From Candidatus Woesearchaeota archaeon (GTDB taxonomy: Archaea > Nanobdellota > Nanobdellia > Pacearchaeales > GW2011-AR1): a stretch of 58,772 nt of DNA. The stretch is from the NCBI GenBank assembly GCA_964493655.1, contig CAZBOY010000001.1:1-58772 (forward strand). Reading direction: 5' to 3'. The notes beneath the pieces are model-generated. The model was not told the origin of the DNA. It worked only from the letters and a program-made list of their open reading frames with translations, and made no database searches. A program made the position numbers and the translations under genes. Positions 8,146-44,274 of this stretch are shown here, one piece after another (position 1 is the first letter of the stretch; each line of letters opens with the position of its first letter).

Positions 8146-8250
8146 TAGGAGCTGACTAATTTAATCTTTATAGTGCCTGATGAAATTTTTCCATATCTTA
8201 AATAGGGTTGGGAAAAATTTCCGCAGAAGCTTCCTAAAGCATTATCACTA
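8146..8250 (+). repeat. nested-palindrome hairpin element, copy 1
   Basis: Stem 8182-8192 GAAATTTTTCC pairs with 8211-8221 GGAAAAATTTC; 18-nt loop starts ATATCTTA. Right flank is CGCAGAAGCTTCCTAAAGCATTATCAC. Confidence 0.75.
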
Positions 8251-8320
8251 AAACTACATCGAGTATTTTGCCAATTCATAAACCCTAATTTTTATTAATA
8301 ACTAACTTATCTTCAACTGG

Positions 8321-8425
8321 TTAGCTGACTGTTTTTTGTTGGTGGTTGTTGCGGAAATTTACCCTTATCTTATTTTTTGTTGGGGGTAAATTTCACCAGA
8401 GGTTTTGAAGAGCACTAAGCTTAAT
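8321..8425 (+). repeat. nested-palindrome hairpin element, copy 2 (in tandem with copy 1)
   Basis: Stem 8354-8364 GAAATTTACCC pairs with 8384-8394 GGGTAAATTTC; loop starts TTATCTTA. Flanks are TTAGCTGACTG...TTGGTGG and TTTTGAAGAGCACTAAGC. Confidence 0.75.
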
Positions 8426-8693
8426 ACTAACACAAAAAGATTTTTTAAATAATAAATCTCATAGAAAACTTTCCTTTAAACTTAGTCAGAAGGATTATTT
8501 ATTTATTCAGTTTTTGGTCTTTTGGAGGGATGTCTTTGGGAGAATCATTAACTTGTGCTGTGGGTTAATTGGGTTAATTCATCGAAATTTAGTAGTGCTA
8601 TAAATTTATATATGTAACTATTTCTAAATTAAAACAGAAAATGGAACTGACAAAGGAATTTATGATAAATAGTATTGAAAGGAGGTATAATAA

Positions 8694-9158
8694 ATGAGAA
8701 AAATTTTAGTTTTATTGATGACTCTTAGTATTTTAACTTTGATGTTTTCTTTATCTAATGTTATTGCCTTAAGCCAAGGTTTAAGTGTTACAATTAAGGA
8801 GGATTTAAATGTTGTAATCACTCCTACAAATGTTGAATTTGGAGAAGTAACTGCAGGAAGTATAGATAATCTTGCTAAGAACGGAAACATTATTATTGAC
8901 CCAACTGGAAGTAATGTTAAAACTATTTATGTTTATGTTTCTGTTGATGAAATAGAACCTTTTAAAACCGGGCTTAAGTTCGATGGAAGATTAGCAGATG
9001 GATTAAATTATGATTTGATATGCATAGAAAATCCATGGGAACACATTCCAAAAATTATTAAACCAACATTGGATGTTCCTTTAGGAGCATATGCAGGTAC
9101 AATATCTGGGGTAGTTACTTATACAATTACTGGAAGTTCGCCACCAGTTCATACATAA
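8694..9158 (+). CDS. small secreted beta-rich protein, paralog of the C-terminal domain of 1758..2822 (candidate fibre subunit)
   Basis: Strong SD (GGAGGT) 8 nt upstream, signal peptide, and the shared FGxVxAGSIDN...DPTGSN...GxVTYTITG motifs. Confidence 0.8.
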   Translation: MRKILVLLMTLSILTLMFSLSNVIALSQGLSVTIKEDLNVVITPTNVEFGEVTAGSIDNLAKNGNIIIDPTGSNVKTIYVYVSVDEIEPFKTGLKFDGRLADGLNYDLICIENPWEHIPKIIKPTLDVPLGAYAGTISGVVTYTITGSSPPVHT

Positions 9159-9159
9159 A

Positions 9160-9684
9160 ATGAAAACATTATTTTTTATTTTTTTAATTATAATGATGGT
9201 GGGGCTAGCTGGGGCTAGTGGATTCTCACCATCAAGTTTGGTTTTTAATCTTGGACCTAATCAAGAAGAATGCCAAATAATAACAATCACCTCTAATTCA
9301 CTGACGATAAATGTGGATGATAAATGGGCTACTAATAGTGATGTTGAATGGAAAGTAAGTTTGTTTAATTCAAGTGCAGAAGAACATAATCTAAATATTA
9401 ATTATGATAACTCCTTGGGGGAAGAGGAGAGAGAATTACAAGTTTGTCTTTCTGGTTCTGAATTAGGAGAATATCATGGAGTTATAATAATGAAAGAAGA
9501 ACAGCAGGGAAATTCTGTTGTGCAAATGGGGGTTTGGTTGAAGGTTGTGGTTGCAGAAAATATTGATAAAAATATTGATAAAACAATTATCTTGGGGGTG
9601 CTCTTTATTTTAATTATGATATCTTTTTTGTTTTTGATTAAAAAGAAAAGTAAGGGTGTAAGTTATTTCATCAAAACCCAGTAG
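9160..9684 (+). CDS. membrane-anchored beta-sandwich-like protein, paralog of 2824..3516
   Basis: Starts 1 nt after the upstream stop. A 62-bp run is identical to 2842-2903, and ~200 bp (9349-9548) is near-identical to 3013-3212. The C-terminal TM anchor differs. Confidence 0.8.
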   Translation: MKTLFFIFLIIMMVGLAGASGFSPSSLVFNLGPNQEECQIITITSNSLTINVDDKWATNSDVEWKVSLFNSSAEEHNLNINYDNSLGEEERELQVCLSGSELGEYHGVIIMKEEQQGNSVVQMGVWLKVVVAENIDKNIDKTIILGVLFILIMISFLFLIKKKSKGVSYFIKTQ

Positions 9685-9705
9685 TAAGACATGTTTATAT
9701 ATAGA
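9667..9705 (+). promoter_or_regulatory. shared promoter-proximal motif, copy 4, more diverged (TTCATCAAAACCCAGTAGTAAGACATGTTTATATATAGA)
   Basis: Overlaps the stop codon of 9160..9684. A GTAGTAAGA core plus a TATA-like box lie ~25 nt before ATG 9726. Confidence 0.45.
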
Positions 9706-9725
9706 AAACTTCTAAAAAAACCAGT

Positions 9726-12700
9726 ATGAAAAAGCAATTGGTATTTTTAATTTTAGGTTTGATTTTGATTAGTTCTGTTTCTGCTGCAGATGTTGCTTAT
9801 ATTTACAGAAGCTCTTCAATGGTTGACGACAATGTCTTAGATGTTTTTTCTGGTTTGCATTTAAGTGTTGATTTAATCAATGAAGATACTCTTCCAAAAG
9901 ATTTTTCAAATTATAAATTTCTTTTTATTGGAGATGAGAGTTTCAGAAATGAAGAAAACATTCCGGTGGATAAATATCCTTCAATTATTACAAGTTATTC
10001 TTTTGGAAAAGAGTTTGGTTTAACTGATGCTGATGGGGTTTCAAAACTTGCGGCTAATTCTCCTCTCCAAGTAAAAAAAGATAATCAGGCAATTCAGGTT
10101 TATACTCAAGCAAAATATAGTTTAGGAGGTATTGCAATTCCTTATTATTTTTTAGATGATCATAATAAAGCTCCTCAGATGCAATCTGTTGCAAGAACTT
10201 ATACTGGGATTAATCAAGAAAATGATTTCGGGGATGTAATTAGTTATGCTGGTCCAGGTGCAGATTTACTTAATGGAAATGAACTTGATAGTAAGCTGTG
10301 CTTTTTTGGAATAATTGAAAGTGACTACTGGACACCTGCTGCTCGTGAGTTGTTTGAAGATTGTGCTGGTTTTGTTGGAATAACTTGTGAGGGGGATAAT
10401 GATTGTCCTGATGATGAAGAGCTAGACAAATTCTGTAGAAATGATGATGTTTATGTTGAAGTTGAAAAATATGATTGTAAAAACGACGGGACTTTTAATT
10501 CTGAGTGTGTTTCTAATACAGATGATGAACTAGAAAAGAATTGTGATTACTTTTGTTATGATGCTGAATGTGTAAGGTGTAATTTTGATTACAATTGTGA
10601 CGACGGAAATATCCGGACTGAAGATAGTTGTGTAAATCCTAAGACAACACAGAGTTATTGTGAATATGGGGATATAACTTGTTTTAATGATAATGAATGC
10701 GACGATGAAAATAATTATACTAAAGATACTTGTTTAAGCCCTGGAACTGTGAACAGTGAATGTAAGCATGAAAACATAATTTGTTTTGAAAATGAAGATT
10801 GCAATGATGAAAATGATTATACAAAAGACCTATGTAGAAATCCCGGGACAGTTCAATCTCAATGTGAATATCAAGATATAGGTTGTCTTAATGATTTTGA
10901 TTGTGAAGATAATAATGAAAGAACTTTTGATGAGTGTGTAAACCCTGGAACTTCAATCAGCGAATGTAGAAATACTGAAATGAATTGTTTGAATGATGCA
11001 GATTGTGGGATTACCGGATTTGTTGGAGAAGAATTCTGCAACCATAATAATGTTTGGAAAACAAAACAAATTGCTCTTTGTCATAATCCTGCGACAATCT
11101 TGAGCTCTTGTGCTATTGCTGTTTATCCTGAATTAATCCAAGATTGCGATGATGGAGATATTTATACTATTGATAGTTGTGTAGAAGATGGAATTGCTCA
11201 TTGCGAGCATAAATTTTTAGAATGTTTAATAGATTCTGATTGCGACGAAGATTATTATACTAACTGGGAATTTTCTTGTGAACAGGACGATGTTATAAAA
11301 ACAAGAGAGCTTCATGATTTTTTCTGTTGTTTTGGTGAATGTTCTTTTTGTCAAGATCCTTGTGAAATAAATCAGAATACTTGTAAGGAATCAATAACTC
11401 CTGAAACAGAGTTTGTTGCTAATTGTGAATATGGATGTGATGATGGTGAATGTTTGCAAGGATGTTATGAAGATTCTGATTGTGGAGAGGTTCATTATGG
11501 GGAAAGATATTGTGAAGGAAGCAGTTCTATTTTAGAAGAATTCACACCAACTTGTACTGAAGGTGAATGTGGAGAAGAATTAAATCTTATTACTAATATT
11601 TGTTTGTATGGATGTGATGATGGAAAATGTAATGAGCCAGAATGTTCTGTTGCTGAAGATTGCGGGGATGTTGTTGAATCTCTTGAATGTGTTGGAGATG
11701 ATTTAGTTAAAACAATTACAACACCTATTTGTATTGAAGGTCTTTGTGGTGAAGAAACTTCTAATGAAACAACTTATTGTGAATATGGATGTGCAAATGA
11801 CGAATGTATAGAGCCTCCAATTGAATGTAATGCAAATCTAGATTGTGGATTAAATCAATTTTTAAATCAGGAATTTTGCCAGAACAATGATGTGTTTGAT
11901 AATTTTATAGTTTATAGTTGTGTAAATCCTGGACAAGTAAATAGTTATTGTGAAGAAGCGATTAATCCTCAATTAATTGAGGACTGCGGTGATGATTCTA
12001 ATGGTGAGTGGGGAAATTATTGTAAGGGTGATGATGTTTGGAGAACAAGAGATAATATAGATAAGGGATGTGTTTCTGGAGAATGCTTTTCAGAAACAGT
12101 TGTTGAAGATGAATTTCTTGTTGCTTGTGAATATGGATGTGATAATGGAAGTTGTATTGAAGGAACTCATGATGTTGCTTTAGTTGATTTTACTAATTCT
12201 GTTAATGGAATCGGTATTCAAGATTTAGGAGGAAATTATATTTTAGGAAATACTGCAACATTGAATTGCAATCAAGAATATAAAATATGGATTGATGTTG
12301 AGAACAAAGGAGATTTTGGAGAAGCAGTTGAATTTGAAAGTTTTGTTGATGGCTTGTTATTTAATCATCTTCAGGTTGATAATCTTCTTCCACAAGAGAA
12401 TAAATTAAAATATAGAACTGTTAATTTTTCATTAGAAGAAGGGGCTTATACAATCTCTGTTGAAGCTATTATAAACTCTGATGATAATTTAGAGAATAAT
12501 CTTGTTCAGAGAAATATAGAAATTGTTTGTGAAGAACCACCAATTGTATGTGAAAGAGATTCTGACTGTGGAACAAACCAATGGATTGGGGATGCACTTT
12601 GTTCAAATAATGATGTTAACCAAAACTTTAAAGTTTTCACATGTTTAAATCCTGGAACAATTAATTCTCAATGTGTTGATCAGGTTGATTTGATTTTAAA

Positions 12701-13223
12701 AAATGATTGCGGTGATGATTCTAATGGTGAATGGGAAAACTATTGTAAAGCAGATGATGTTTGGAGAACAAGAGATAATATAGATAAAGGATGTGTATCT
12801 GGAGATTGTTATTCTGAGGAATCTACTCAAGATGAATTTCTTGTTGCTTGTGAATATGGATGTGCAAATGACGAATGTATAGAGCCTCCAATTGAATGTA
12901 ATGCAAATCTAGATTGTGGATTAAATCAATTTTTAAATCAGGAATTTTGCCAGAACAATGATGTGTTTGATAATTTTATAGTTTATAGTTGTGTAAATCC
13001 TGGACAAGTAAATAGTTATTGTGAAGAAGCGATTAATCCTGAACTTATTGAGGATTGTGGTGATGATTCATTTGGAAATACTTATTGTATTGGAAAGGAT
13101 ATTTATCAAAATCAAACAGTAGTTAGTTGTGCTGATGCAAATTGTTTTAGTGAAATAAATCCTGTATTAGTTGGAAGTTGTGACTACAGATGTGCAAATG
13201 GGGGTTGCATAGCTTGTGTTTAA
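9726..13223 (+). CDS. giant secreted Cys-rich modular surface protein (1165 aa) with an internal CARDB-like domain
   Basis: Signal peptide and an N-domain paralogous to 7050..8114. Tandem 34-aa four-Cys modules (C-x5-C-x10-C-x9-C, e.g. CFNDNECDDENNYTKDTCLSPGTVNSECKHENII). Larger duplicated Cys-rich units. CARDB-like HDVALVDF...ENNLVQRNIEIVC. Confidence 0.85.
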   Translation: MKKQLVFLILGLILISSVSAADVAYIYRSSSMVDDNVLDVFSGLHLSVDLINEDTLPKDFSNYKFLFIGDESFRNEENIPVDKYPSIITSYSFGKEFGLTDADGVSKLAANSPLQVKKDNQAIQVYTQAKYSLGGIAIPYYFLDDHNKAPQMQSVARTYTGINQENDFGDVISYAGPGADLLNGNELDSKLCFFGIIESDYWTPAARELFEDCAGFVGITCEGDNDCPDDEELDKFCRNDDVYVEVEKYDCKNDGTFNSECVSNTDDELEKNCDYFCYDAECVRCNFDYNCDDGNIRTEDSCVNPKTTQSYCEYGDITCFNDNECDDENNYTKDTCLSPGTVNSECKHENIICFENEDCNDENDYTKDLCRNPGTVQSQCEYQDIGCLNDFDCEDNNERTFDECVNPGTSISECRNTEMNCLNDADCGITGFVGEEFCNHNNVWKTKQIALCHNPATILSSCAIAVYPELIQDCDDGDIYTIDSCVEDGIAHCEHKFLECLIDSDCDEDYYTNWEFSCEQDDVIKTRELHDFFCCFGECSFCQDPCEINQNTCKESITPETEFVANCEYGCDDGECLQGCYEDSDCGEVHYGERYCEGSSSILEEFTPTCTEGECGEELNLITNICLYGCDDGKCNEPECSVAEDCGDVVESLECVGDDLVKTITTPICIEGLCGEETSNETTYCEYGCANDECIEPPIECNANLDCGLNQFLNQEFCQNNDVFDNFIVYSCVNPGQVNSYCEEAINPQLIEDCGDDSNGEWGNYCKGDDVWRTRDNIDKGCVSGECFSETVVEDEFLVACEYGCDNGSCIEGTHDVALVDFTNSVNGIGIQDLGGNYILGNTATLNCNQEYKIWIDVENKGDFGEAVEFESFVDGLLFNHLQVDNLLPQENKLKYRTVNFSLEEGAYTISVEAIINSDDNLENNLVQRNIEIVCEEPPIVCERDSDCGTNQWIGDALCSNNDVNQNFKVFTCLNPGTINSQCVDQVDLILKNDCGDDSNGEWENYCKADDVWRTRDNIDKGCVSGDCYSEESTQDEFLVACEYGCANDECIEPPIECNANLDCGLNQFLNQEFCQNNDVFDNFIVYSCVNPGQVNSYCEEAINPELIEDCGDDSFGNTYCIGKDIYQNQTVVSCADANCFSEINPVLVGSCDYRCANGGCIACV
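11778..11969 (+). repeat. perfect 192-bp intragenic direct repeat, copy A
   Basis: Identical base for base to 12849-13040 when read by eye. Encodes CEYGCANDECIEPPIECNANLDCGLNQFLNQEFCQNNDVFDNFIVYSCVNPGQVNSYCEEAINP. Confidence 0.9.
12849..13040 (+). repeat. perfect 192-bp intragenic direct repeat, copy B
   Basis: Lies 1071 bp downstream of copy A. The neighbouring duplicated units are clearly more diverged (roughly one difference per 8-10 nt by eye). Confidence 0.9.
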
Positions 13224-13224
13224 G

Positions 13225-14301
13225 ATGGTAAATGATTATTCAAGAAGAGCATTTGTTAGTAGCATATTAGGGGCTGTATGTGGGGGGTGTGCAAAAATCG
13301 CCGGAGATTATATGAAAGATCCAGAAGCCACTCCAGGTATTTTAAGAGAGGGTATTGCAAGACCTTATAATGCAGTAAGTGTTGAAGTTCCTACAAATTC
13401 TGAAGATGCTAGAAATAAAATGAATGAAGGTTTAGGGAGAATTCCACAAAATCTTGTTAGACTTGTTGATAGTGTTACAAGTATAGTGGGAATTCGAGGA
13501 GGAAGATATTGCGGTTTAGTTTCAACAACTGAAAGATTTAATCCACCAAAAGGAAAGGAATTTGAATATAGAGTAAGAGCAATTGTAACTCAACCAGGAA
13601 GGGGTATTGCAGATGTTTTAGAATGTGCTTCTAATTTAATTGGAGATATTGTTAAACCAGGTGTACAAGCTGTGAATTTGGGTATGGTTCTTCCCCTATC
13701 TTCAAATAATGTTAATGTTGATGCATGGACAGATGTGGTTAAAGGGCCATTGAGAGCAGGATTATATTTAGGACAGGAAATGGCTGGAGTTGGATTGCCT
13801 GCTTCTTGGAAATCTAGTGTTTTTGGTATGAAAAAATGGGCAGGATTTGATTTAAGTGAAGAAGATGAAAGAACTCATCAAGAATTACAAATGAAATTTA
13901 AAAGATTATATGAAGGAGAAATAAAACCAGATATTGCAAGGGTTATTGTAAATGCAATACCTGCTGTTGGAAATAGTTTAGATAGTTTATTTTGGAGAAC
14001 AAATGTAAGGGGTAATAGTGGGACATACCAAATTGTTGTTAATTTCATGGAAAATGGAATACCTGCTCCAGTGCATGTTGGAGATGAATCATTTGCAGAT
14101 GATAAAAAATGGTATGGTAAGGATAAAGATCCTACAAAAGCTCCTGGAGTTTTTATAAATAATGAATTCAGACCGGCAAAATCTGTTTTATTAGAATTAA
14201 TAAAATTAGCTCCATCTTTTGCTGGTTCTGGTGGTGGGGGTGGTGGTGGCGCAAGTCCTGCTAGTGGTGGTGGTCGTTCAGGAGGTTCTGGAGGAAGATG
14301 A
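13225..14301 (+). CDS. protein of unknown function with a twin-arginine-like N-terminus and a Gly-rich C-terminal tail
   Basis: ATG lies 1 nt after the stop of the giant gene. N-terminus MVNDYSRRAFVSSILGAVCGGCA; C-terminus SGGGGGGGASPASGGGRSGGSGGR. Confidence 0.7.
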   Translation: MVNDYSRRAFVSSILGAVCGGCAKIAGDYMKDPEATPGILREGIARPYNAVSVEVPTNSEDARNKMNEGLGRIPQNLVRLVDSVTSIVGIRGGRYCGLVSTTERFNPPKGKEFEYRVRAIVTQPGRGIADVLECASNLIGDIVKPGVQAVNLGMVLPLSSNNVNVDAWTDVVKGPLRAGLYLGQEMAGVGLPASWKSSVFGMKKWAGFDLSEEDERTHQELQMKFKRLYEGEIKPDIARVIVNAIPAVGNSLDSLFWRTNVRGNSGTYQIVVNFMENGIPAPVHVGDESFADDKKWYGKDKDPTKAPGVFINNEFRPAKSVLLELIKLAPSFAGSGGGGGGGASPASGGGRSGGSGGR

Positions 14302-15257
14302 AAAAAACAATAACAATTTTATTGCTGGTATTATTTTTAAGTTTAAACTTAGTAATTGCCGATAGATATGAGGATAATAATATTAAATATGGAAAAATTG
14401 ATTCTGGCGGAAACTTAATTGAAACTTCAACTCCTATCAATGGTGCGAGTGTTTTAGGATTTGTTTGCAGTTCTGCAGATTGTGGAAGTGTGTCAGGAAG
14501 ATTATGGTCAAATATACTGAATACAAATACTGATTTTATTCAATTGGTTTATCCATATGAATTATTATCTAATTTTGGTTATGGGGTTTACTTTTTTAAA
14601 GATGGATATATTCCTTATGAAGTTGATGTAGATTGGTGGGGAACAAATTCCGGAGATCCTGTAGGACCTTATGATAATTATTTATCTAAAAAAGAAATGT
14701 GCGTTTCGGATATAAGTAATTTAGGAGTTGCTCTTGATAATCATAATGTAGATGTGAATCTTAAAGTTAAATCTCCTATTGATAATTCAGGTCCTTTAGA
14801 TTATATTCCTTCTGAACTTAAAGAACATTATAGTGCAGATGTAGGAGTTGAACTTGATGTTTTGAAAGATGATTCTTCATATTATGAAAAAACAGAATCC
14901 GTAGATATTCCATTTTCTGAAAAAAAGAATGTTGGTTTTTCTTTTGCTGCTGAACCTGGAGATTATGAATTAGTTGTTTCTACTTTTATTGGTGATGACA
15001 AATGTTTAAGTTATGAACCTGATGAACAAATTAAGAAGTTTACAATTTGCTATGTAAATAATGATTGTGGTTCTTCAGCATGTATTGAAAACGGAAACTA
15101 TTGCGGAGTTGACGGAAACATCTATCATGATTATGCAGGTTTAAAATGTGAAAATCCTGGAACACTAAATGGGGTATGTTCGCAAATTTCTGAAAGCAGA
15201 AAAATAGGGACTTGTTTATATGGTTGTGGAAGTGGAAAATGTTTGGGTAAGGGGTAG
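14298..15257 (+). CDS. secreted protein with a C-terminal Cys-rich module like those of the giant protein
   Basis: ATGA overlap with the upstream gene and a signal peptide. C-terminus CYVNNDCGSSACIENGNYCGVDGNIYHDYAGLKCENPGTLNGVCS...CLYGCGSGKC. Confidence 0.75.
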   Translation: MKKTITILLLVLFLSLNLVIADRYEDNNIKYGKIDSGGNLIETSTPINGASVLGFVCSSADCGSVSGRLWSNILNTNTDFIQLVYPYELLSNFGYGVYFFKDGYIPYEVDVDWWGTNSGDPVGPYDNYLSKKEMCVSDISNLGVALDNHNVDVNLKVKSPIDNSGPLDYIPSELKEHYSADVGVELDVLKDDSSYYEKTESVDIPFSEKKNVGFSFAAEPGDYELVVSTFIGDDKCLSYEPDEQIKKFTICYVNNDCGSSACIENGNYCGVDGNIYHDYAGLKCENPGTLNGVCSQISESRKIGTCLYGCGSGKCLGKG

Positions 15258-22340: not shown

Positions 22341-22438
22341 AGTTGGGCATTACTAAATTAATTTATTAATCTAACAAACATTTTTGGATGATATTTTCAT
22401 CAACGTTACCTTTCGAAGATTTTGTGAATTAATAAAAT

Positions 22439-27335: not shown

Positions 27336-27467
27336 ATCTTGAGAAGATAGAGGAAATATCACTAAATTTTAAATTATCGTTTAGTTGGAGTTATTGATTA
27401 GTTCTTCAAGGATGTTGTAGAAATTTAGGTACATTTTATTTGATTGGCTAAATTTCTGATTTTTATT

Positions 27468-27716
27468 TTATATTTTTGCTAGGTTTTCTAAATATCTTGG
27501 ATTGAAAGGCCCTGTTTGGTTTTCTATTTGTTGATTATAGAAAGAGAGATATTCTCTTTGCTTTCTTTTATTTTTTATGTATTTGCTAATGTGTCCTTTG
27601 GCAGATAATTCAAAAGCTTGTCTTAAACTTTCTTGGCAATTTTGAGGAACTGAGTTTGCAAGTCTTGTTAAATCGTCTTTTAGAAGTTGATCTCTGATTT
27701 CTTCTGTGGTTAACAT
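27468..27716 (-). CDS. hypothetical small protein
   Basis: 82-aa ORF. No motif recognised. Confidence 0.45.
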   Translation of the reverse strand: MLTTEEIRDQLLKDDLTRLANSVPQNCQESLRQAFELSAKGHISKYIKNKRKQREYLSFYNQQIENQTGPFNPRYLENLAKI

Positions 27717-30560: not shown

Positions 30561-30730
30561 AAAAAACTAATAAAATCTGTATATATAAGCATTATTGTAA
30601 TTAATAACAACAATAATGATGTGGAATTCACAAATGAGTGATTATGAAAAAGTTATTTTTTCAATCTTAAACCATGAATAGATAAAAATTTATTAATTAT
30701 AAAATTGCTAATAGAATTATAGAACATAGA

Positions 30731-30822
30731 TTATTTATCTTGGCGGCTTTCGCGGAAATTTATCCCGAGTATTTTAAGATAAGGATAAATTTCTTCAGGA
30801 GTTTTGCAGAGCAGTAGCATAA
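30731..30822 (+). repeat. nested-palindrome hairpin element, copy 3
   Basis: TTATTTATCTTGGC GGCTTTCGCG, then stem 30755-30765 GAAATTTATCC pairing with 30783-30793 GGATAAATTTC, then TTCAGGAG TTTTGCAGAGCAGTAGCATAA. The loop ends TAAGATAA. Confidence 0.8.
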
Positions 30823-30866
30823 ATCTCATTTAAAGATTTTTATTAGAGTAATAAAGGATATATATT

Positions 30867-32592: not shown

Positions 32593-32660
32593 AATTTATT
32601 TCTTGTGATGACTATAAAAAAATTTAAATTTATTAATCTAATAAATCATCGCTTTGGGGG

Positions 32661-32758
32661 AATAGGTTATTTATCTTGGTGGCTTTTACGGAAATTTATC
32701 CTTGTCTATAACATACTTGGGATAAATTTCTTCAGAAGTTTTGCAGAGCATTATCATA
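32661..32758 (+). repeat. nested-palindrome hairpin element, copy 4
   Basis: GGTTATTTATCTTGGT GGCTTTTACG, then stem 32691-32701 GAAATTTATCC pairing with 32720-32730 GGATAAATTTC, then TTCAGAAG TTTTGCAGAGCATTATCATA. The listed ORF 32605..32787 across it is probably spurious. Confidence 0.8.
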
Positions 32759-32851
32759 GCCTTAATACAAAAGATTTGTTTGATTAATAAATTGAGAAAA
32801 ATTAAAACCCACAAACTTAAAAACTAATAATTCTAATTATAAAAGAAGAAG

Positions 32852-33472
32852 ATGGGATTTTTAATGCAAGCAGTTGAAAATATCGCAAGTTCTATTTCCA
32901 GTTATGGAATCTTTACAACCCTTTTCTTTTTTACAATCATAATTTCTCTTTATGGAATTTTTGTTTATTATTTTTATAAAAATCTTGCAAGAAGAAATCT
33001 TATAAATTTGGACCTTAACCAATACAATACTACTGAACATCCTATGCTTGGAAAATTTTTTGCATTTCTCTTTTATGTGTTAGAATATCTGATTATTCTT
33101 CCAATTTTGACATTTATCTGGTTTGCAGTTCTAGCTATCTTTTTAGTTGTGTTATCAGAAATAGATAATGTTGGAACAATCTTGATGATTTGTGCAGCGC
33201 TCATCGCTTCTGTGCGAGTTGTATCTCAAATAAGTGGACAGCTTTCACAAGACCTTGCAAAAATTGTTCCTTTCACATTATTAGGTTTATTTATTCTTAA
33301 TCCAGGATTTTTTGATTTAACTGCATTAGTAAATAGATTTTCACAAATACCTGTTTTAATCAGCCAAATTCCTATTTATATTTTCTTTATAATTGGGGTA
33401 GAGATTTTAGCGAGGGTTATTGGATTTTTTGAAAGAATGTTTAGGACGCGAGGCGAGATTGAAGAAGAATAA
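32852..33472 (+). CDS. small polytopic membrane protein, unknown function
   Basis: 206 aa with several hydrophobic helices. Bracketed by hairpin copies 4 and 5. Confidence 0.65.
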   Translation: MGFLMQAVENIASSISSYGIFTTLFFFTIIISLYGIFVYYFYKNLARRNLINLDLNQYNTTEHPMLGKFFAFLFYVLEYLIILPILTFIWFAVLAIFLVVLSEIDNVGTILMICAALIASVRVVSQISGQLSQDLAKIVPFTLLGLFILNPGFFDLTALVNRFSQIPVLISQIPIYIFFIIGVEILARVIGFFERMFRTRGEIEEE

Positions 33473-33529
33473 TTTTTGATTCTCTGACTAAAGTTAATTT
33501 ATTAATTAAATTACTTCTAAAATTGTGAG

Positions 33530-33629
33530 AAGTCTATTACTTCCCTTGGTAACTTTTGAAGAAATTTAGCACAATAATTTTTTTAAGATGGTGCTAAATT
33601 TCCGCAAAGGATTTTTAGAGCAGTAAAGG
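33530..33629 (+). repeat. nested-palindrome hairpin element, copy 5
   Basis: CCCTTGGT AACTTTTGAA, then stem 33561-33572 GAAATTTAGCAC pairing with 33591-33602 GTGCTAAATTTC, then CGCAAAGGA TTTTTAGAGCAGTAAAGG. The loop ends TAAGATG. Confidence 0.75.
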
Positions 33630-33743
33630 TAAAGCTCATCTCAAGAATTTTTGTCAATTAATAAATTTGAGAATTTATACCCAATAAATCAAAATTCAAC
33701 AAACATCCACAAACCTTTAAAACCCCCCCGCATTCTAATTTTC

Positions 33744-34952
33744 ATGGAAGAAAAAATAGACATCTCTAAAATTGAGACATTAAATGTTGGGATAGTCGGG
33801 CATATTGACCATGGAAAGACAACCTTGCTTTACAAACTTAGCGGGAAATGGGCTGATACACATTCTGAAGAATTGAAAAGGGGGATTACAATTAAACTTG
33901 GTTATGCAGATGTTATAATTAGAGATGAAGATGGGAATTTGACTACTGATAAAAAAAGTAAAGGCAAACCTATCCGTTACATAACTTTTGTAGATGCTCC
34001 TGGACACGAGATGCTTATGGCAACAATGCTTTCTGGTTCTGCAATTATGGATGCTGCGATTTTAGTTATTGCTGCAGACGAAGGGATAAAACCCCAGACA
34101 AAAGAACATCTAATTGCTCTCCAGGCTAAGAAAATTAAAAATATAATAATTGTCCAGAATAAAATTGATTTGGTTTCTAAAGAAGATGCTCTAAAAAATT
34201 ACCAAAAAATTAAAGAGTTTGTAAAGGGAACTATTGCAGAAAATTCTCTGATAATTCCTGTTTCTGCTCAGCAAAATATTAATATTGACAAAGTATTGGA
34301 AGAACTCTGTAAAATTAAAATTGAAAAAAAGGATTTGGAAAAAAAACCTCTTTTCCTTATTGCGAGAAGTTTTGATATTAACAAACCTGGGACTGATCTT
34401 AATAATTTGCATGGGGGGGTTTTGGGGGGGGCTTTAAAACAAGGAAGTTTAAAAATCGGAGATGAAATTGAAATCAAGCCAGGTTATTCTTATAAAAAAC
34501 AAAATAAGTTTTATTATCACCCAGTTAAATCCAAAATTGTTTCAATGCAAAAAGGAGAGTATCCAATTGAAGTTGCAACCCCTGGAGGAAGCCTAGCAAT
34601 TGAGACAGAGTTAGACACAAGTTTGACAAGGGCAGATTCTTTGTCTGGTTGTGCTGTGTCCTATGTTGGAGAACTCCCAGAAATAAGTGAGGAAACTAAA
34701 ATTAAATTTGATTTATTTGGAGAAGTCTTGGGAACTGCCGGGCACGAGGCTGTTGCAGAGTTGAAGACAAATGAAATGCTGATGCTAAGTATAAACACCA
34801 CAATAACTGTTGGGCAGGTGAAAAAAATAAAAGATAAAGAGGTAGAATTATCTTTGAAAATTCCTATTGTGCCTTTGAAGGGGACTGGTGTTGGAATTGC
34901 GAGAAATATCAAGGGGCACTGGCGGTTGATTGGTTTTGGGGAGATTATTTAA
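33744..34952 (+). CDS. eif2g: translation initiation factor aIF2 gamma subunit
   Basis: MEEKIDISKIETLNVGIVGHIDHGKTTL, DAPGHE, NKID. I prefer ATG 33744 over the listed TTG 33651, whose extension overlaps intergenic repeat sequence. Confidence 0.9.
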   Translation: MEEKIDISKIETLNVGIVGHIDHGKTTLLYKLSGKWADTHSEELKRGITIKLGYADVIIRDEDGNLTTDKKSKGKPIRYITFVDAPGHEMLMATMLSGSAIMDAAILVIAADEGIKPQTKEHLIALQAKKIKNIIIVQNKIDLVSKEDALKNYQKIKEFVKGTIAENSLIIPVSAQQNINIDKVLEELCKIKIEKKDLEKKPLFLIARSFDINKPGTDLNNLHGGVLGGALKQGSLKIGDEIEIKPGYSYKKQNKFYYHPVKSKIVSMQKGEYPIEVATPGGSLAIETELDTSLTRADSLSGCAVSYVGELPEISEETKIKFDLFGEVLGTAGHEAVAELKTNEMLMLSINTTITVGQVKKIKDKEVELSLKIPIVPLKGTGVGIARNIKGHWRLIGFGEII

Positions 34953-35007: not shown

Positions 35008-35814
35008 ATGGAAATTAAATTAAATGTTGTCGAACCAAATCTGATTGTTAGTGGAGATGGAATCTATTTGGGTTTGGATGGAAAAGATATTGTTCCTGTT
35101 GGTTTAGATGTTGATTGGATTGTTATGAATCATATCGGAGAATTAAAAGTAAGCAAAGGTGATTTGGAAACTATTGGTGGAGGAAAGGGTAAACAAAATG
35201 GGGAATTTGATACACCATTAAATGAATATTTACAGGAATTTAAAGCAAGATTTAATTCAGATTTTTGTTTTAGTATTACAGATGACTCCACAAGATTATT
35301 TGGATTAAGCTATGTTGTTAATGCTGCGACTCATGAATTACCTTGGGAGGCTTTTTTTTGGAAGGAACTTGCAGGAATTATAGCCAATCCTGATGGGTTT
35401 AATAGAAATTGTGATAATAACGAAAAGAAGTTGAAATATATTAGGATAGACAGAAAACGGACTTTTGAAGAGATAAAAAAATTACATGATGAATTAGAGC
35501 CTAAAACTCCTGATAATTTTGCAGGAATTAGTATTCTTCCAGGGCGATTTCCTTATGATGATAAAACTTTAGTAGTAAAATATTTAGCTCATGTAACTTT
35601 GGGTCAATTAAAAGCAAAAGACAGAACACAATTAGAATTAGCAAAATCTAAATTAGTGGAAAAATTAAAAAAAGTTAAAGGTCCTGCACTTTCTCTTGAT
35701 GCTCCTTGTCTTCAGCAGCAGATTTGGAGATTATACTTTGATGCTCCAAGATTAGTCAGGGATTATGGAGATGTTTTAAATTCTTTTCCAAGATTTTTTA
35801 AATTAGACCCCTGA
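35008..35814 (+). CDS. hypothetical protein
   Basis: 268-aa ORF with no motif recognised, followed by hairpin copy 6. Confidence 0.6.
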   Translation: MEIKLNVVEPNLIVSGDGIYLGLDGKDIVPVGLDVDWIVMNHIGELKVSKGDLETIGGGKGKQNGEFDTPLNEYLQEFKARFNSDFCFSITDDSTRLFGLSYVVNAATHELPWEAFFWKELAGIIANPDGFNRNCDNNEKKLKYIRIDRKRTFEEIKKLHDELEPKTPDNFAGISILPGRFPYDDKTLVVKYLAHVTLGQLKAKDRTQLELAKSKLVEKLKKVKGPALSLDAPCLQQQIWRLYFDAPRLVRDYGDVLNSFPRFFKLDP

Positions 35815-35851
35815 TTATTTTTATTAATCCCAAAACTATTCATCGACTTAT

Positions 35852-35950
35852 GAGCTGACTGATTTGTCTTGGCAACTCTTGAAGAAACCCAAACTTATCT
35901 TATATGATTGTTTGGATTTCCACAAAACCTTTTCAGAGCATTATGATAAA
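35852..35950 (+). repeat. nested-palindrome hairpin element, copy 6
   Basis: GAGCTGACTGATTTGTCTTGGC AACTCTTGAA, then stem 35884-35894 GAAACCCAAAC pairing with 35910-35920 GTTTGGATTTC (one C.A mismatch), then CACAAAACC TTTTCAGAGCATTATGATAAA. The loop starts TTATCTTA. Confidence 0.75.
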
Positions 35951-36043
35951 CACTCCACAAAAAGGTTTATTAATTAATAATTTAATTTTTATTATCTAGA
36001 TTATTTTCAAAACATATTTATACCTTAAAAACAACAGAATAAT

Positions 36044-36484
36044 ATGGAAAAGGTGGTGAAACAAAAAATACCAGAAGCAAATGCCGAGGGAGCTATCCCG
36101 AAAATATTAATCCCGAGTGGAAAATTGATTTCTGAAATTTTTGGGATAATCTTTATTATAGTTTTGTTGTGGAGCATCCTTGGGGGAAACAATTGGGAGC
36201 TGACTACTTCAAATCTTTCAATAGAAATTGGATGGCCGTGGTCTTTTCTTTATCTTGAAGAGAGTTATGATGGTGGACTTCCGATAAACATATTAAATTT
36301 AATTTTGGACATGCTTGTTTATCTTGTGGCTTCGTATATAATTGCAGTGGTGTTTACAGTTATTTGGGATTCATTTAGAGGACCTCCAAAACCAATTTCA
36401 GAGCAAGATAAAAAAACTATGAATAATTTGAGGAAGTTAGCGGGGGGGGGGAAATTAATTATTAATCCTAAAAAATTCTCTTAG
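36044..36484 (+). CDS. small membrane protein, unknown function
   Basis: 146 aa with 2-3 hydrophobic helices. Bracketed by hairpin copies 6 and 7. Confidence 0.6.
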   Translation: MEKVVKQKIPEANAEGAIPKILIPSGKLISEIFGIIFIIVLLWSILGGNNWELTTSNLSIEIGWPWSFLYLEESYDGGLPINILNLILDMLVYLVASYIIAVVFTVIWDSFRGPPKPISEQDKKTMNNLRKLAGGGKLIINPKKFS

Positions 36485-36488
36485 GAGA

Positions 36489-36579
36489 TTTATGCTTAAT
36501 GCTCTGAAAAGCTTTTGTGGAAATTTATCCTTACTTTAATATACTTGAGATAAATTTCTTCAGAAATTGCCAAGGTTAC
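36489..36579 (-). repeat. nested-palindrome hairpin element, copy 7 (outer flanks inverted on the + strand)
   Basis: TTATGCTTAATGCTCTGAAAA GCTTTTGTG, then stem 36519-36528 GAAATTTATC pairing with 36548-36557 GATAAATTTC, then TTCAGAAA TTGCCAAGG. Lies between the convergent 3' ends of 36044..36484 and gyrA. Confidence 0.8.
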
Positions 36580-36632
36580 AATCATCAACCCCAAATATTA
36601 AAAATTTAAATTTACGAATATGTTGTCTTCTG

Positions 36633-39978: not shown

Positions 39979-39979
39979 C

Positions 39980-41878
39980 CTACAAATCCACCTCTGCAAT
40001 CTTTGCATTTTCTTCTATAAATTTACGACGAGGAGCAACAGCATCTCCCATGAGGATTGAAAAAGTTTCATCTGCTTCAACTGCATCTTCAATTGAAATT
40101 TGTTTCATTATTCTTGATTTTGGGTTCATTGTTGTATCCCAGAGCTGGCTATCATTCATTTCTCCAAGACCCTTGAATCTACTGACTTCATTATTTGAAC
40201 CCAGTTTCGCTAGGATTTTTTTTAATTCATCTTCGCTGTAAACATAGTAATCTTTTCCTGATTTTCTGATTTTGAAAAGCGGGGCTACTGCAACAAAAAT
40301 ATTTCCAGCTTCAATTAATTGAGGGACATATCTGAAGAATAAAGTCAATAACAAAGTTTTGATATGCTGTCCGTCAACATCTGCATCAGTCATGATTATT
40401 ATTTTATTGTATCTTAATTTGGTTATATCAAAACTATCTCCAACACCGGTTCCAATTGCTTGAACAAGATTAGCAATTTCTTCTGACGAAAGTGCTTTTG
40501 CAGGATTTGATTTTTCTACATTTAGGATTTTTCCTTTTAGTGGAAGAATTGCTTGAAATTCTTTATCTCGCGCACCTTTTGCAGTTCCTCCTGCAGATTG
40601 TCCTTCAACAATATAAAGTTCTGTGTTTTCTTTTTTCTTTGAAGAGCAATCTGCTAATTTTCCAGGAAGTCCTGAACCACATAAAGCATTTTTTCTTCTA
40701 ACAAGTTCTTTTGCTCTTCTTGCAGCTTCTCTTGATTGAAGTGCAGATGCTGCTTTTTTTGCAATTAGGTTTGCTGTCGAAGGATTTTCTTCAAAAAATT
40801 CTGACAAAGCAGTTGTTACAATAGAATCAATTATTCCTTTTATTTCCCCGTTTCCTAACTTTGTTTTTGTTTGTCCTTCAAATTGAGGTTCTTTCATTCT
40901 TAAAGAAATAACTGCGGTAAGTCCTTCACGAACATCGTCACCCTGAAGTTTTTCTTTTTTTAATATTGATTTTTTTGTAGCATAATCATTGATTACTCTT
41001 GTAAGAGCTGTTTTAAATCCAGCTACATGAGTCCCGCCTTCAACTGTATTAATTGTATTTACAAATCCGTGAATGTTCTCGTTGTAGGAATCTGAATACT
41101 GAATTGAAATTTCTGCAATTGTATCTTTTTCCTGTCTCTTAAAATAAATTGGTTTATGGAGGGGGGTTCTTGTTTTGTTCAGCCATTTTACAAATTCAAC
41201 TAAACCTCCGGAATAACAAAACTCATCTTTTTTACCAGTTCTTTTATCCTTGAACGTTATTTTTAGTCCTGCATTTAGAAAACAGGTTTCTCTGAATCGT
41301 GTTGCTAGGATGTTATAGTCAAAATCAATTTTAGAAAAGATTGTTTCATCTGGCATGAAAGTTACTTTAGTACCGGATTCTTGTTTTTCGCATTTTTCGA
41401 TAACTTCTACTTCTGAAATGGGTTTTCCGATTTTGTAAGATTGTGTATAGATTTGTCCGTCTTTTTTTATTTCAACAGTCATTTTTTTAGATAGTGCTGC
41501 AACTACAGAAATTCCAACTCCATGAAGGCCACCTGAAACAGCATAAGCCTTGTTGTCAAATTTTCCGCCTGCGTGTAATGTTGTTATGATTAATTCCATT
41601 GCAGGTTTTTTGTAAACTGGGTGTATGTCTACGGGCATCCCCCGGCCATTATCTTCCACAGACACAGAACCATCTTTGTTAATTATAACATTTATTGTTG
41701 TACAGACTCCTGCAAGACATTCGTCAACAGAATTGTCAACAACTTCGTAAACCATGTGATGTAAACCATACTTATCAGTAGAACCAATATACATCCCCGG
41801 TCTTTTTCTTACAGCTTCCAGACCTTCCAGAACTTGAATATCTTTTGCTGAATAACTTGATTTTTCTGCTTCTGCCAT
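39980..41878 (-). CDS. gyrB: DNA gyrase subunit B
   Basis: GHKL ATPase motifs (LEAVRKRPGMYIGST, GLHHMVYEVVDNSVDE, GGLHGVG) and Toprim (ELYIVEGQSAGG, IMTDADVDG). Confidence 0.95.
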   Translation of the reverse strand: MAEAEKSSYSAKDIQVLEGLEAVRKRPGMYIGSTDKYGLHHMVYEVVDNSVDECLAGVCTTINVIINKDGSVSVEDNGRGMPVDIHPVYKKPAMELIITTLHAGGKFDNKAYAVSGGLHGVGISVVAALSKKMTVEIKKDGQIYTQSYKIGKPISEVEVIEKCEKQESGTKVTFMPDETIFSKIDFDYNILATRFRETCFLNAGLKITFKDKRTGKKDEFCYSGGLVEFVKWLNKTRTPLHKPIYFKRQEKDTIAEISIQYSDSYNENIHGFVNTINTVEGGTHVAGFKTALTRVINDYATKKSILKKEKLQGDDVREGLTAVISLRMKEPQFEGQTKTKLGNGEIKGIIDSIVTTALSEFFEENPSTANLIAKKAASALQSREAARRAKELVRRKNALCGSGLPGKLADCSSKKKENTELYIVEGQSAGGTAKGARDKEFQAILPLKGKILNVEKSNPAKALSSEEIANLVQAIGTGVGDSFDITKLRYNKIIIMTDADVDGQHIKTLLLTLFFRYVPQLIEAGNIFVAVAPLFKIRKSGKDYYVYSEDELKKILAKLGSNNEVSRFKGLGEMNDSQLWDTTMNPKSRIMKQISIEDAVEADETFSILMGDAVAPRRKFIEENAKIAEVDL

Positions 41879-42122
41879 TTTCGTAGTTCTAACTCTTTTT
41901 TGGAAAATTTTATTGATTTTTTAATTAATTTTAAGAGAATTTCTCTCTTAGATATTTAGAAAAATGAATCTTAGTTTATAAAGCTTTTGGGGGTTTTGTC
42001 GACGATGAATCTATTTTTATCTTAAAAATAAAGAGTTTTCAGATTTTGGATACTTATTTGGTTTTTACTATATAGTGGTGATTAATAGTAAAGTTTATAA
42101 GGGTTTAATTTATTAAATTATT

Positions 42123-42647
42123 ATGGAAAATAGAAGAGAATTTTTCGGAAAATGTGTAAGTGGATTAGCCAGTTTACTTGTAGGTGTAAATGCATTTGCA
42201 GAAGAACCAATAACTAAAAGGATACAAGAAAAAGTTTTAAGGGTTATTGATTATGTAAGGGCAAATGGGCAAAAAATGTCTAGTCTTAATGGTGGAAGCC
42301 AATATCAACTTCAAGCACCTTTTGGTGCTGAAAAACCATATTCTTTTAATGTAACTTATAATGAAAGAGATGAACTTCAAGAATTCGGATATGATGGAGC
42401 CTTACCTACTGCAAAAGATAAAAAAGAAGATGTTTCTTTAGTGAGAGATTTAATAAGGACTAAGGGGATTTGTGGAGTTGATGATAGACTTATTTTATGG
42501 AATAATAAAACTTCTTCTCAAAGAATGATTAAAGGCACAGCTTTTGCCGGAGAGCCAGATACAGATAATATGAAATATGCTAATGAAAAATATTTAGAAG
42601 CACTTGATTATTTCCTTGAAAAATTTGATAAGGATAAGAAAAAATAA
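42123..42647 (+). CDS. hypothetical exported protein with a twin-arginine-like signal
   Basis: MENRREFFGKCVSGLASLLVGVNAFA-EEP: an RR motif, a hydrophobic core, and an AFA cleavage-like site. Confidence 0.6.
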   Translation: MENRREFFGKCVSGLASLLVGVNAFAEEPITKRIQEKVLRVIDYVRANGQKMSSLNGGSQYQLQAPFGAEKPYSFNVTYNERDELQEFGYDGALPTAKDKKEDVSLVRDLIRTKGICGVDDRLILWNNKTSSQRMIKGTAFAGEPDTDNMKYANEKYLEALDYFLEKFDKDKKK

Positions 42648-42687
42648 AATAGATAAATTTTATAAATGGTATTAAAATAAATTTCTG

Positions 42688-43194
42688 ATGGAAGAAAGTA
42701 TTAAGGAGTATAAATATGGTGGGAGATTATTTGGAAGATTAATTAGGGGGGATTCTGGAGATACACATTTTGAACCTTGTATTGAAGAATTTGAACTTTT
42801 TGATCTTATAAGAGAAATGAATGTTAGCGATCAGGTCCATATGGAAAGGAAAGCTTTTGCTGTTTTTAGATTGCTAAAACATTATGGACATAACCCTAAG
42901 GATTGTCTTGAGAATGAATCTATTTTAATTCACCTTGCTAATCTTGGACATACAAGCCGTTTTAAGTTGCAAAGACAGGATACAACAGCTTATGATTTGG
43001 TCACTCAAAGGGGCTTACTCAAAGGAAGATATAAACATAGATTAAGTAGTAAAACACTAAGATTACCCAAACCCCAAAGAGTTAGTTTTGAAGAAGAAAG
43101 GGAAGAATATGGTTGGACTGCTTCTAGGGTAGTTCAAAAAATTTTAGCTGAAAGAACTGTGAGGGGTCGGGGGCGAAGATTTAATTCTAGATGA
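42688..43194 (+). CDS. hypothetical protein with an Arg-rich C-terminus
   Basis: 168-aa ORF. No motif recognised. Confidence 0.55.
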   Translation: MEESIKEYKYGGRLFGRLIRGDSGDTHFEPCIEEFELFDLIREMNVSDQVHMERKAFAVFRLLKHYGHNPKDCLENESILIHLANLGHTSRFKLQRQDTTAYDLVTQRGLLKGRYKHRLSSKTLRLPKPQRVSFEEEREEYGWTASRVVQKILAERTVRGRGRRFNSR

Positions 43195-43210
43195 TATTTT
43201 ATTAGGACTC

Positions 43211-43393
43211 TTACTCTTTTTTATCAACCTTATTAACTTTCTGAACCCACTTCACTTTCTTATTGTTACGTCCCATTTCTTGGTTTTTTCTGCATTTAGA
43301 TGAACAAAAATAAAATGGTGTTCCTTCTTTTTGGACTACAGTTACTCCTTTGGGGAATTTATACTCTTGTTTACAAAATATGCATTTGGGCAT
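43211..43393 (-). CDS. rpl24e: ribosomal protein eL24 (L24e)
   Basis: MPKCIFCKQEYKFPKGVTVVQKEGTPFYFCSSKCRKN zinc-ribbon signature. Confidence 0.9.
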   Translation of the reverse strand: MPKCIFCKQEYKFPKGVTVVQKEGTPFYFCSSKCRKNQEMGRNNKKVKWVQKVNKVDKKE

Positions 43394-43701
43394 TAGCTAA
43401 AAACCCCCTTGGAAATTTTTGTTCTTAATCTTCGCGCCTCAATTTCTGTTTCTCTTAACATTAAAACATCTCTTTTTCTTACAGGCCCTCGAACATTTCT
43501 TCTCATTTGTTTTCCTTGATTTCTTCCCTTTAATACTCGGCATTTTACTTGAGTCAACTCTCCACGAGTTCCTGTTCTCCCGGCTATAAATTCTACAACT
43601 GCTGGAACTGCACCTTCTTCTGTTAATTTTTCAGAACCTTTTGAAGAACCTTTGGAAGCAGAATTTGATTTTTGCTCTTTAATTTTTTGTGTTTTTGCCA
43701 T
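43393..43701 (-). CDS. rps28e: ribosomal protein eS28 (S28e) with a Lys/Ser-rich N-terminal extension
   Basis: AVPAVVEFIAGRTGTRGELTQVKCRVL...GPVRKRDVLMLRETEIEARRL core. About 30 extra N-terminal residues. Confidence 0.9.
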   Translation of the reverse strand: MAKTQKIKEQKSNSASKGSSKGSEKLTEEGAVPAVVEFIAGRTGTRGELTQVKCRVLKGRNQGKQMRRNVRGPVRKRDVLMLRETEIEARRLRTKISKGVFS

Positions 43702-43717
43702 GTAAGTTTAAAAATAA

Positions 43718-44014
43718 TTATTTAATTGAATCTAATTTAGCTTCCCCTAATTCGATAATTGCAATTGCACTGCACTTGACATTTATTCCTGCGACGATTC
43801 CTAATTTTTCTTTAGAATCTGCTTCAACAAATTTGATGTTTTTTTCTTTGCATAAAAGGGGGATGTGTTGAGTTAGTTCTTTTGGTTCAATATCTGCAGC
43901 TACAACAACAAGTTTTGCAACTCCTCGCTCAATTGCTTTTGTAACTTCGTTTATACCTTTGTCAATTTTCCCTGTCTTTGCTGCTTTTTCAACAACATCA
44001 TATATTGTAATCAT
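43718..44014 (-). CDS. rpl7ae: ribosomal protein L7Ae (short form, 98 aa)
   Basis: GINEVTKAIERGVAKLVVVAADIEPKELTQHIPLLCKEKNIKF. Conserved L7Ae-S28e-L24e gene order. Confidence 0.9.
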   Translation of the reverse strand: MITIYDVVEKAAKTGKIDKGINEVTKAIERGVAKLVVVAADIEPKELTQHIPLLCKEKNIKFVEADSKEKLGIVAGINVKCSAIAIIELGEAKLDSIK

Positions 44015-44173
44015 TTTGTTTGTTAACCAATAGAACTAATCCTCCCTATTGGTCATTGGATAGTTAAGAAATAATAATTGGGTTTAAAAAGCTTTTGTTA
44101 TAATCTAAACAAACAAAAAACTAGCTTAAGGTTAATTTAAAATTTATTAATTGACAAAGACTCTTTGTGGGCG

Positions 44174-44274
44174 TTTATCATAATGCTCTGCAAAGCTTCT
44201 GCGGAAATTCTTCTAAATCTAAAATATGATGCGGAAGAATTTCTTCAAGTGTTGCCAAGATAAATAACTCCTAT
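44174..44274 (-). repeat. nested-palindrome hairpin element, copy 8 (outer flanks inverted on the + strand)
   Basis: TTTATCATAATGCTCTGCAAA GCTTCTGCG, then stem 44204-44213 GAAATTCTTC pairing with 44234-44243 GAAGAATTTC, then TTCAAGTG TTGCCAAGATAAATAACTCCTAT. Confidence 0.8.

Follow-up and report, generated by a model that had tools for sequence, protein, structure and literature searches.

The 58,772-bp contig CAZBOY010000001.1 of Candidatus Woesearchaeota archaeon, referred to here as the window, contains eight intergenic copies of a hairpin-forming palindrome, and the question it raises is whether this palindrome is an RNA structure of the host, a DNA site or a mobile sequence. The window is a complete contig of a metagenome-assembled genome (MAG) with a G+C content of ~31%, and its genes are archaeal housekeeping genes (aIF5B, S6e, aIF2-gamma, gyrA/gyrB, L7Ae, S28e, L24e, and Kae1). 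The host was assigned to the DPANN archaea because the nearest named relatives of its aIF2-gamma carry the labels Nanoarchaeota or Candidatus Pacearchaeota. Our analysis favors, with a probability of roughly 55%, a new archaeal family of non-autonomous, hairpin-dependent palindromic repeats with a putative mobilizing enzyme, resembling transposable elements of the miniature inverted-repeat type (MITEs) or REPINs, the hairpins formed by doublets of repetitive extragenic palindromic (REP) sequences. In its behavior, the repeat resembles a small mobile DNA element of the non-autonomous type, that is, a new family of a familiar kind and not a new RNA gene.

Extent and anatomy of the repeat family

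All eight copies named in the original prediction were found in place and aligned as one family, six on the plus strand and two on the minus strand. A covariance model built from these copies scored them at 87.6-99.7 bits, while the opposite strand of the same copies reached 32-50 bits and the next best unrelated match in the window 19 bits. Because of this gap in bit score, the family is sharply defined and not a chance pattern. Look-ups with window proteins recovered two contigs that extend the window, L167 by 9.1 kb to the left with five more copies and L164 by 7 kb to the right with two more. A specific pattern scan of JGI metagenome contigs yielded 12 loci with about 12 further copies. 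Across ~105 kb of contigs of the host population, 25 strong copies (49.7-99.7 bits) and 3 weaker ones were present, and at least 17 copies beyond the eight of the window were located on contigs of the same or related populations. The full-length copies had a median pairwise identity of 58% and a maximum of 77%. Outside these populations, the matches listed in a scan of GTDB genomes with a pattern of the 3' half were due to chance, mostly in coding sequence of Paenibacillus, and the archaeal hits L022, L065, and L108 were rejected as coincidences in coding sequence. None of 23 pattern hits in viral contigs was confirmed by the covariance model, and no match to the family was found in plasmid and phage collections.

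The unit was larger than the ~100 bp first described. It is ~165 nt long and is bounded by 9-bp terminal inverted repeats (TIRs), TTTATTAAT on the left and ATTAATAAA on the right, which stand at fixed offsets from the core. Allowing one mismatch at most, 19 of 25 copies had the left TIR 33-37 nt upstream of the model start, and in 21 of 25 the right TIR began 22-24 nt past the model end. The TIR 9-mer was enriched in the window (19 occurrences against 6.1±2.4 expected), with 11 of the 19 at copy ends. From the outside to the inside, the unit consists of the TIR, arms of ~57 nt, a weak 6-bp outer helix, a 2x2 internal loop with G-C pairs on both sides, the stem, and the loop. The arms contain conserved non-complementary motifs, CTTGG on the left and CAGAGCAnTA on the right. 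In the core stem of 10-14 bp, the base is constant (GAAAT/ATTTC) whereas the distal 6-7 bp are free to have any sequence provided that it is paired, and the stem carries a loop of 15-20 nt of the TTATCTTATATGATT type, whose 5' half, TATCTTA, is itself conserved. The inner segments, earlier proposed to extend the helix through G-T(U) pairs, correspond to this weak outer helix and the 2x2 internal loop, the latter being nearly always mismatched and staying so in about 24 of 25 copies. T-runs were found at both ends of the unit in the sense orientation only. A diverged subfamily B is bounded by a matching pair of TIR variants, TTAGTAAT/ATTACTAA, and its stem is lengthened by G-U pairs.

The motif TTAGCTGACTGA and its variants were also observed in the left arm, for example at 8143-8160, 8318-8332, and 35848-35862 of the window, where two or three reading frames are stopped close to the element's 5' end. 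These stop codons may be selected, for instance by closing open reading frames (ORFs) that read in, or may be plain AT-rich background. The TIR and the loop look TATA-like, yet a promoter function was rejected since they were not separable from background at 31% GC and the real gene promoters differ (ACAAAC-CTTTAAAA). A K-turn or C/D box was dropped as well, since UGAUGA and CUGA were present in only a few copies and in the wrong order.

Stem pairing, isomers, and orientation

The compensatory changes originally described in the stem were confirmed by counting the alignment cells changed on both sides. Ten such cells were found in the eight window copies, against 3.0±1.6 in shuffles (0/500), and 27 in a set of 18 copies, against 9.8±2.6 (0/500). 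In the latter set, 90.8% of the cells were paired, compared with at most 62% when the partner column was slid. At least 15 distinct stem sequences were present among 32 tabulated copies, a number that takes in three weaker matches, subfamily B, and the window relic described below, and the stem was formed by 9-15 contiguous base pairs in 28 of the 32 and interrupted in the other 4. In most copies the core hairpin was also more stable than its dinucleotide-shuffled versions, with z-scores from -0.7 to -3.5 when 100 nt was folded as RNA and from -1.9 to -5.4 when 50 nt was folded as DNA. Selection on a fold rather than on a sequence, as was first suggested, describes the 11-bp core stem but not the loop and the stem base, which are conserved in sequence too. 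Since an unconstrained 11-bp stem would rarely survive at a median identity of ~58%, the pairing of the stem is probably actively maintained. Such maintenance could come from selection on proliferating lineages, from selection on each copy in place, or from correction of one arm by the other, and the selection may favor the ability of the copies to proliferate rather than a function for the host.

The interior of the palindrome occurs in inverted forms. The internal loop was mainly AA/CR, and CG/TT, its exact reverse complement, was observed as well. The terminal loop was also present in both orientations, and all four of the four combinations of internal-loop isomer and loop orientation were seen. 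The copy at position 433 of L167 has the loop AACCATATAAGATAA, the reverse complement of the TTATCTTATATGATT type, on the same CCAAAC stem as the copy at 35855 and that of L119. These flip-flop isomers are the product expected of recombination between inverted arms. Arms and stems were combined in a modular way too, as the copy at 35855 and that at L120:1546 have identical left arms and different stems. The two strands folded equally well, the sense strand being favored in 9 of 18 copies (p = 0.35), and G-U pairs were not clearly in excess over A-C in the outer helix; neither folding energy nor these counts gave a clear signal of strand asymmetry.

The copies were originally reported to follow the polarity of the upstream gene. 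In the window, this was true for 6-7 of the 8 copies, but it failed in the adjoining 9 kb, where the five copies of L167 just left of the window were all antisense to co-directional genes. The copy at L120:2812 was also antisense, and overall the orientation matched that of the upstream gene in about 15 of 22 judgeable copies (p = 0.13). Orientation was clustered along a 75-kb stretch, in which five minus copies were followed by six plus and four minus copies (3 runs in 15 copies, exact p = 0.003). Direct tandems were found at 8119-8456 of the window, with two copies in L164, and with three in L167. The copies at 6170-6270 and 8667-8767 of L167 have ~35 nt of extra flank in common on both sides, and each is located beside a paralogous 100-aa ORF; they were therefore probably duplicated in a larger segment, not inserted separately.

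Comparison with relatives showed that copies are gained or lost. A related genome, represented by L151, L152, and L002, has the same gene order and an aIF2-gamma identity of 82-91%, and it carries subfamily B. Among six comparable orthologous spacers of the window and L151/L002, a copy was present in both at two and in only one at four. In the relatives L153-L155 (aIF2-gamma identity 78-80%, same gene order), the spacers were tight and short and contained no copy. The contigs that cover the window in other samples were all 99.9-100% identical and thus uninformative for empty sites or single-nucleotide polymorphisms.

Mobility and the rival explanations

Among the roles first offered, a REP/MITE-like hairpin in single-stranded DNA (ssDNA), a recombination site, and an RNA element of the 3' end, the REP/MITE-like hairpin is best supported because of the TIRs, the many copies, their gain and loss, the flip-flop isomers, and the lack of strand asymmetry, while the 3'-end RNA element loses its main support with the five antisense copies and the overall count of about 15 in 22. 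Presence and absence at orthologous sites of a relative together with the lack of copies in more distant ones, the occurrence of loop and mismatch in both orientations, and the equal folding of the strands likewise argue for a mobile-like palindrome that acts at the DNA level and not for a conserved RNA. In the mechanism we propose, the copies would spread via a trans-acting enzyme that reads the termini together with the hairpin folded in ssDNA, and only lineages with a paired stem would keep multiplying. The inversions would come from recombination between the arms, and insertions would persist only where neither a gene nor a promoter is disrupted.

As in MITEs such as ERIC/IRU, Correia/NEMIS, RUP, and the SM1-SM4 elements of Sulfolobus, the repeat is small (well within the <~500 bp typical of the class), AT-rich, intergenic, and multi-copy, with eight copies in 58.8 kb and no conserved ORF; it is bounded by TIRs, forms a long imperfect hairpin, and shows insertion polymorphism between related genomes, with four of the six spacers differing. 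It differs from them in that neither a target-site duplication, in the copies inspected, nor a parent insertion sequence (IS) with the same ends, in the window and archaeal loci searched, was detected, that its internal stem covaries where that of a MITE is conserved in sequence, and that its copies are far more diverged than is typical of MITEs with recent activity. A review of prokaryotic MITEs names as archaeal hosts Sulfolobus, Halobacterium, Haloquadratum, Desulfurococcus, and "several other archaeal genomes", and DPANN archaea are not among them (PMC10969869).

Among described systems, the logic of the repeat is closest to that of REPINs, which occur in Pseudomonas and other bacteria and are mobilized by RAYT transposases. 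REPINs have conserved ends and a spacer that needs only to pair; compensatory changes are "common", the hairpin forms in ssDNA or mRNA, and the clusters are ordered (PMC3116915). The window repeat shares with them the intergenic palindrome of ~100 nt, the conserved ends, the pair-only spacer, and the hairpin predicted in ssDNA or RNA, and both have many copies, tandem clusters, and long persistence. In contrast to REPINs, however, it does not appear to be made of two inverted REP units: although a hairpin with compensatory changes is present, the arms are not recognizable as REP units, CTTGG and CAGAGCA are not inverted copies of each other, and the GTAG/CGTC tag is absent. No RAYT was found among the window ORFs scanned, and the repeat adds 9-bp TIRs ~57 nt outside the hairpin in an archaeal, AT-rich host. 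A 2025 survey of REP sequences in bacteria and archaea mentions neither DPANN, nor Nanoarchaeota, nor RAYTs (PMC12306157).

The search for a mobilizing enzyme gave one candidate, which was rejected. The sole transposase of the window is a tnpA gene of the IS200-type Y1 class on the minus strand (58162-58608), which scored 89 bits on the IS200 model (cut-off 55) and 33 bits on the RAYT model (cut-off 80), so the window holds no single-copy RAYT flanked by repeats. The IS200/IS605-type element at 58090-58772 has GC-rich flanking hairpins, and these are unrelated to the repeat. Its end is located at most about 20 nt from the right TIR of a copy just past the contig end, and breaks inside tnpA in contigs of other samples suggest that several copies of this IS exist as well. 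The ends of IS200/IS605 elements and of PATEs resemble the repeat as imperfect ssDNA hairpins that lack a target-site duplication, and here the IS200-type tnpA adjoins the TIR of one copy; they differ from it in having two unlike subterminal hairpins, at the left end (LE) and the right end (RE), and no TIRs, and the hairpins of the tnpA element are unlike the repeat.

Several observations weigh against a mobile family. Among the window ORFs scanned, no RAYT, DDE transposase, or integrase was found, and profiles of the left and right ends matched only complete copies in ~180 kb of window and archaeal loci, so that a longer element with the same ends was not seen. No target-site duplication was observed outside the TIRs in the copies inspected, although a duplication of 2-3 bp could be hidden by the AT-rich flanks and the age of the copies. 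No excision or insertion event was observed directly, as the population sampled was clonal, and the two positions common to the window and the relative fit inheritance as well as insertion hot spots. The full-length copies are old and diverged and therefore give no sign of a recent burst. Moreover, intact stems in such old copies could instead reflect selection acting on every copy where it stands, and this would imply a function for the host.

A possible but less probable variant of the mobile reading is an archaeal counterpart of REPINs, in which proliferation or retention depends on the folded ssDNA hairpin being read by its shape and the enzyme belongs neither to the RAYTs nor to the known transposases, or in which the repeat has already been domesticated by its reduced-genome host, for example for 3'-end formation or replication. 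Such a system would explain why stems are perfect in copies at ~58% identity.

A host role at the RNA level, which we consider about as doubtful, would make the repeat part of the upstream gene's transcript, as a stabilizer or terminator in the 3'-UTR (untranslated region), or else a family of small RNA genes in which the left TIR serves as TATA box and the T-run behind the core as terminator. The orientation of 6-7 of the 8 window copies with the gene whose stop codon precedes them by 5-36 nt is consistent with such a role, as are the persistence of stem pairing at only ~58% identity, the G-U extension of the stem in subfamily B, which works on one strand only, and the T-runs at both ends in the sense orientation alone. 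It is opposed by the antisense copies adjacent on the left and the weak overall match of orientation given above, by folding that has no strand asymmetry, and by orthologous spacers of relatives that have no copy. The occurrence of the loop in both orientations relative to the flanks makes a loop read on one RNA strand hard to reconcile with the data. The original prediction knew of no RNA family of this shape, and the Rfam scan agreed: only a tRNA-Asp reached the gathering score in the window, and at E <= 10 five copies gave no match beyond two chance snoRNA-like hits of 19-21 bits.

The repeat could also be a domesticated structural site, a cruciform or hairpin to which a protein of the host binds, such as gyrase or a nucleoid, replication, or recombination factor, as has been proposed for the bacterial REP/BIME sequences. 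Its symmetry at the DNA level, the flip-flop isomers, the equal folding of both strands, the conservation of stem base and loop, and the intact stems of old copies all fit such a site. We nevertheless regard it as improbable, since a loop of 15-20 nt disfavors cruciform extrusion, copies are gained and lost between relatives, no candidate protein was found, and the free variation of the distal stem makes a reader of duplex sequence unlikely.

Slightly less probable still is that the stems are kept by repair and not by selection, through arm-to-arm template switching or mismatch correction in quasi-palindromes, and that the copies are inert relics of one ancient expansion. Such relics would be old and would lack near-identical pairs, as is the case here, and interaction of the arms at the DNA level is evident from the inverted loops. 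Arm-to-arm correction alone, however, does not explain why the 2x2 mismatch next to the stem persists uncorrected, or why the stem base, the loop, and the asymmetric arm motifs are conserved in sequence, and flanks and stems have been shuffled between copies, such as those at 35855 and L120:1546.

The reading as attC-like recombination sites of an archaeal integron, with each upstream ORF as a gene cassette, is close to refuted: although the repeat resembles attC in being an imperfect palindrome directly 3' of ORFs, conserved in structure over sequence, with a conserved unpaired spacer between outer and inner helix and a variable distal structure, R''/R' core sites (consensus RYYYAAC / GTTRRRY) were absent at its ends when the copy alignment was inspected by eye, the ORFs scanned gave no integrase-family hit and no nearby intI, the copies stand in both orientations among housekeeping genes (aIF2-gamma, S6e, gyrA, L7Ae) and not in a co-oriented cassette array, and in the relative these ORFs are retained while the sites are absent.

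Positions of the copies, neighboring genes, and significance

The left ends of the copies are located 5-36 nt past a stop codon, and the promoter of the next gene comes downstream of the copy, so that the copies are confined to the short spacer between the two; this spacer is presumably the only insertion-tolerant place in a compact genome, which would explain why they are found there. Copy 1 (8119-8282, plus strand) begins 5 nt past the stop codon of ORF 7050-8114 and consists of the left TIR at 8119-8127, the core at 8152-8252, and the right TIR variant ATTCATAAA at 8274-8282. Copy 2 (8291-8456, plus strand) follows 8 nt later as a direct tandem, with the left TIR at 8291-8299, the core at 8325-8425, and the right TIR variant AATAATAAA. 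Copy 3 (30689-30855, plus strand; core 30726-30824) has the CG/TT isomer of the internal loop and a reversed loop, and it is antisense to the flanking minus-strand ORFs; L151/L002 has a copy at the same position. The TIR pair of copy 4 (32629-32791, plus strand; core 32662-32761) is perfect, and copy 5 (33498-33665, plus strand; core 33532-33633) has the stem TTTAGCAC/GTGCTAAA. Both are missing from the orthologous spacers of L151/L002, that of copy 5 being located upstream of aIF2-gamma. Copy 6 (35820-35981, plus strand; core 35855-35951), with the stem CCCAAAC/GTTTGG, begins 5 nt past the stop codon of ORF 35008-35814. Copy 7 (36458-36621, minus strand; core 36489-36587) is located between convergent genes downstream of gyrA and has a degenerate left TIR. 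The description of all copies as intergenic was right in general but not for this one, whose right end runs into the final codons of ORF 36044-36484. Copy 8 (44143-44306, minus strand; core 44173-44272), with the stem TTCTTC/GAAGAA, is located between a 107-aa ORF and the L7Ae gene.

The window also contains two reduced members. A relative that lacks the core (22362-22436, minus strand), located between convergent genes, has its arms and TIRs joined directly around a 19-nt mini-hairpin. A degenerate copy resembling subfamily B (27380-27470, plus strand), with its hairpin at 27419-27458 (GAAATTTAG...CTAAATTTC), follows an SfLAP-like gene, and L151 has an intact copy of subfamily B at that position.

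The ORFs of unknown function that neighbor the copies had no paralogy and no Pfam or NCBIfam hits, and their role as a gene family or cargo was therefore dropped; a look-up of one 206-aa neighbor protein gave no record. The motif ACAAAC-CTTTAAAA was observed ~27 nt before ATG codons, at 33700-33746 and 32810-32852 of the window and at 3290-3325 of L002, and is probably a BRE/TATA promoter positioned for leaderless mRNAs. A nucleotidyltransferase ORF with a helix-turn-helix domain and a HEPN ORF overlap at 5955-6984 of the window, as in a typical toxin-antitoxin pair, and in the left extension L167, within the region of highest repeat density, a second nucleotidyltransferase/HEPN-like pair and one of the PemK/RHH type are found.

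At 9726-13223, the window encodes a cysteine-rich secreted protein of 1165 aa, within which stretches of 222-278 nt are repeated at 63-98% identity. ORF 7050-8114 is a paralog of its N-terminal domain, and together with 14298-15257, which belongs to the same region, these genes look like a fast-evolving cluster of surface proteins. A gene pair at 1758-3516 is duplicated at 8694-9684, with 2820-3119 and 9156-9455 being 85% identical. Each pair has a large surface protein as its neighbor, as if a surface-protein module had undergone segmental duplication. In the relatives, L002 matches L151 at 97% identity as far as the stop codon of aIF2-gamma and then has the window-type 268-aa gene at 91% identity; it is a mosaic with its breakpoint at the gene end beside the repeat copy of L151. 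The gyrA of another relative (L153, 1596-4892; 1098 aa) carries an intein with an Intein_splicing domain, which is absent from the 834-aa GyrA of the window.

The repeats also affect the assembly itself. Position 7024 of L164 corresponds to position 58772 of the window, so the window contig stops exactly at the right TIR of a copy, which is a typical repeat-induced assembly break, and the family therefore probably fragments the assemblies of this lineage.

DPANN genomes are very small and have little intergenic DNA, yet in this lineage a single repeat family takes up a large share of the spacers. The combination of TIRs, a covarying stem, and flip-flop isomers forms a clean data set that can help to tell selection on a fold apart from palindrome evolution driven by repair. 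Should the family be mobile, it would point to a further mobilizing enzyme in DPANN organisms, and it would provide a ready marker for strain typing and help to explain the break points of MAG contigs. If its copies are instead retained for a function of the host, the repeat would be a rare structure-selected intergenic element in archaea.

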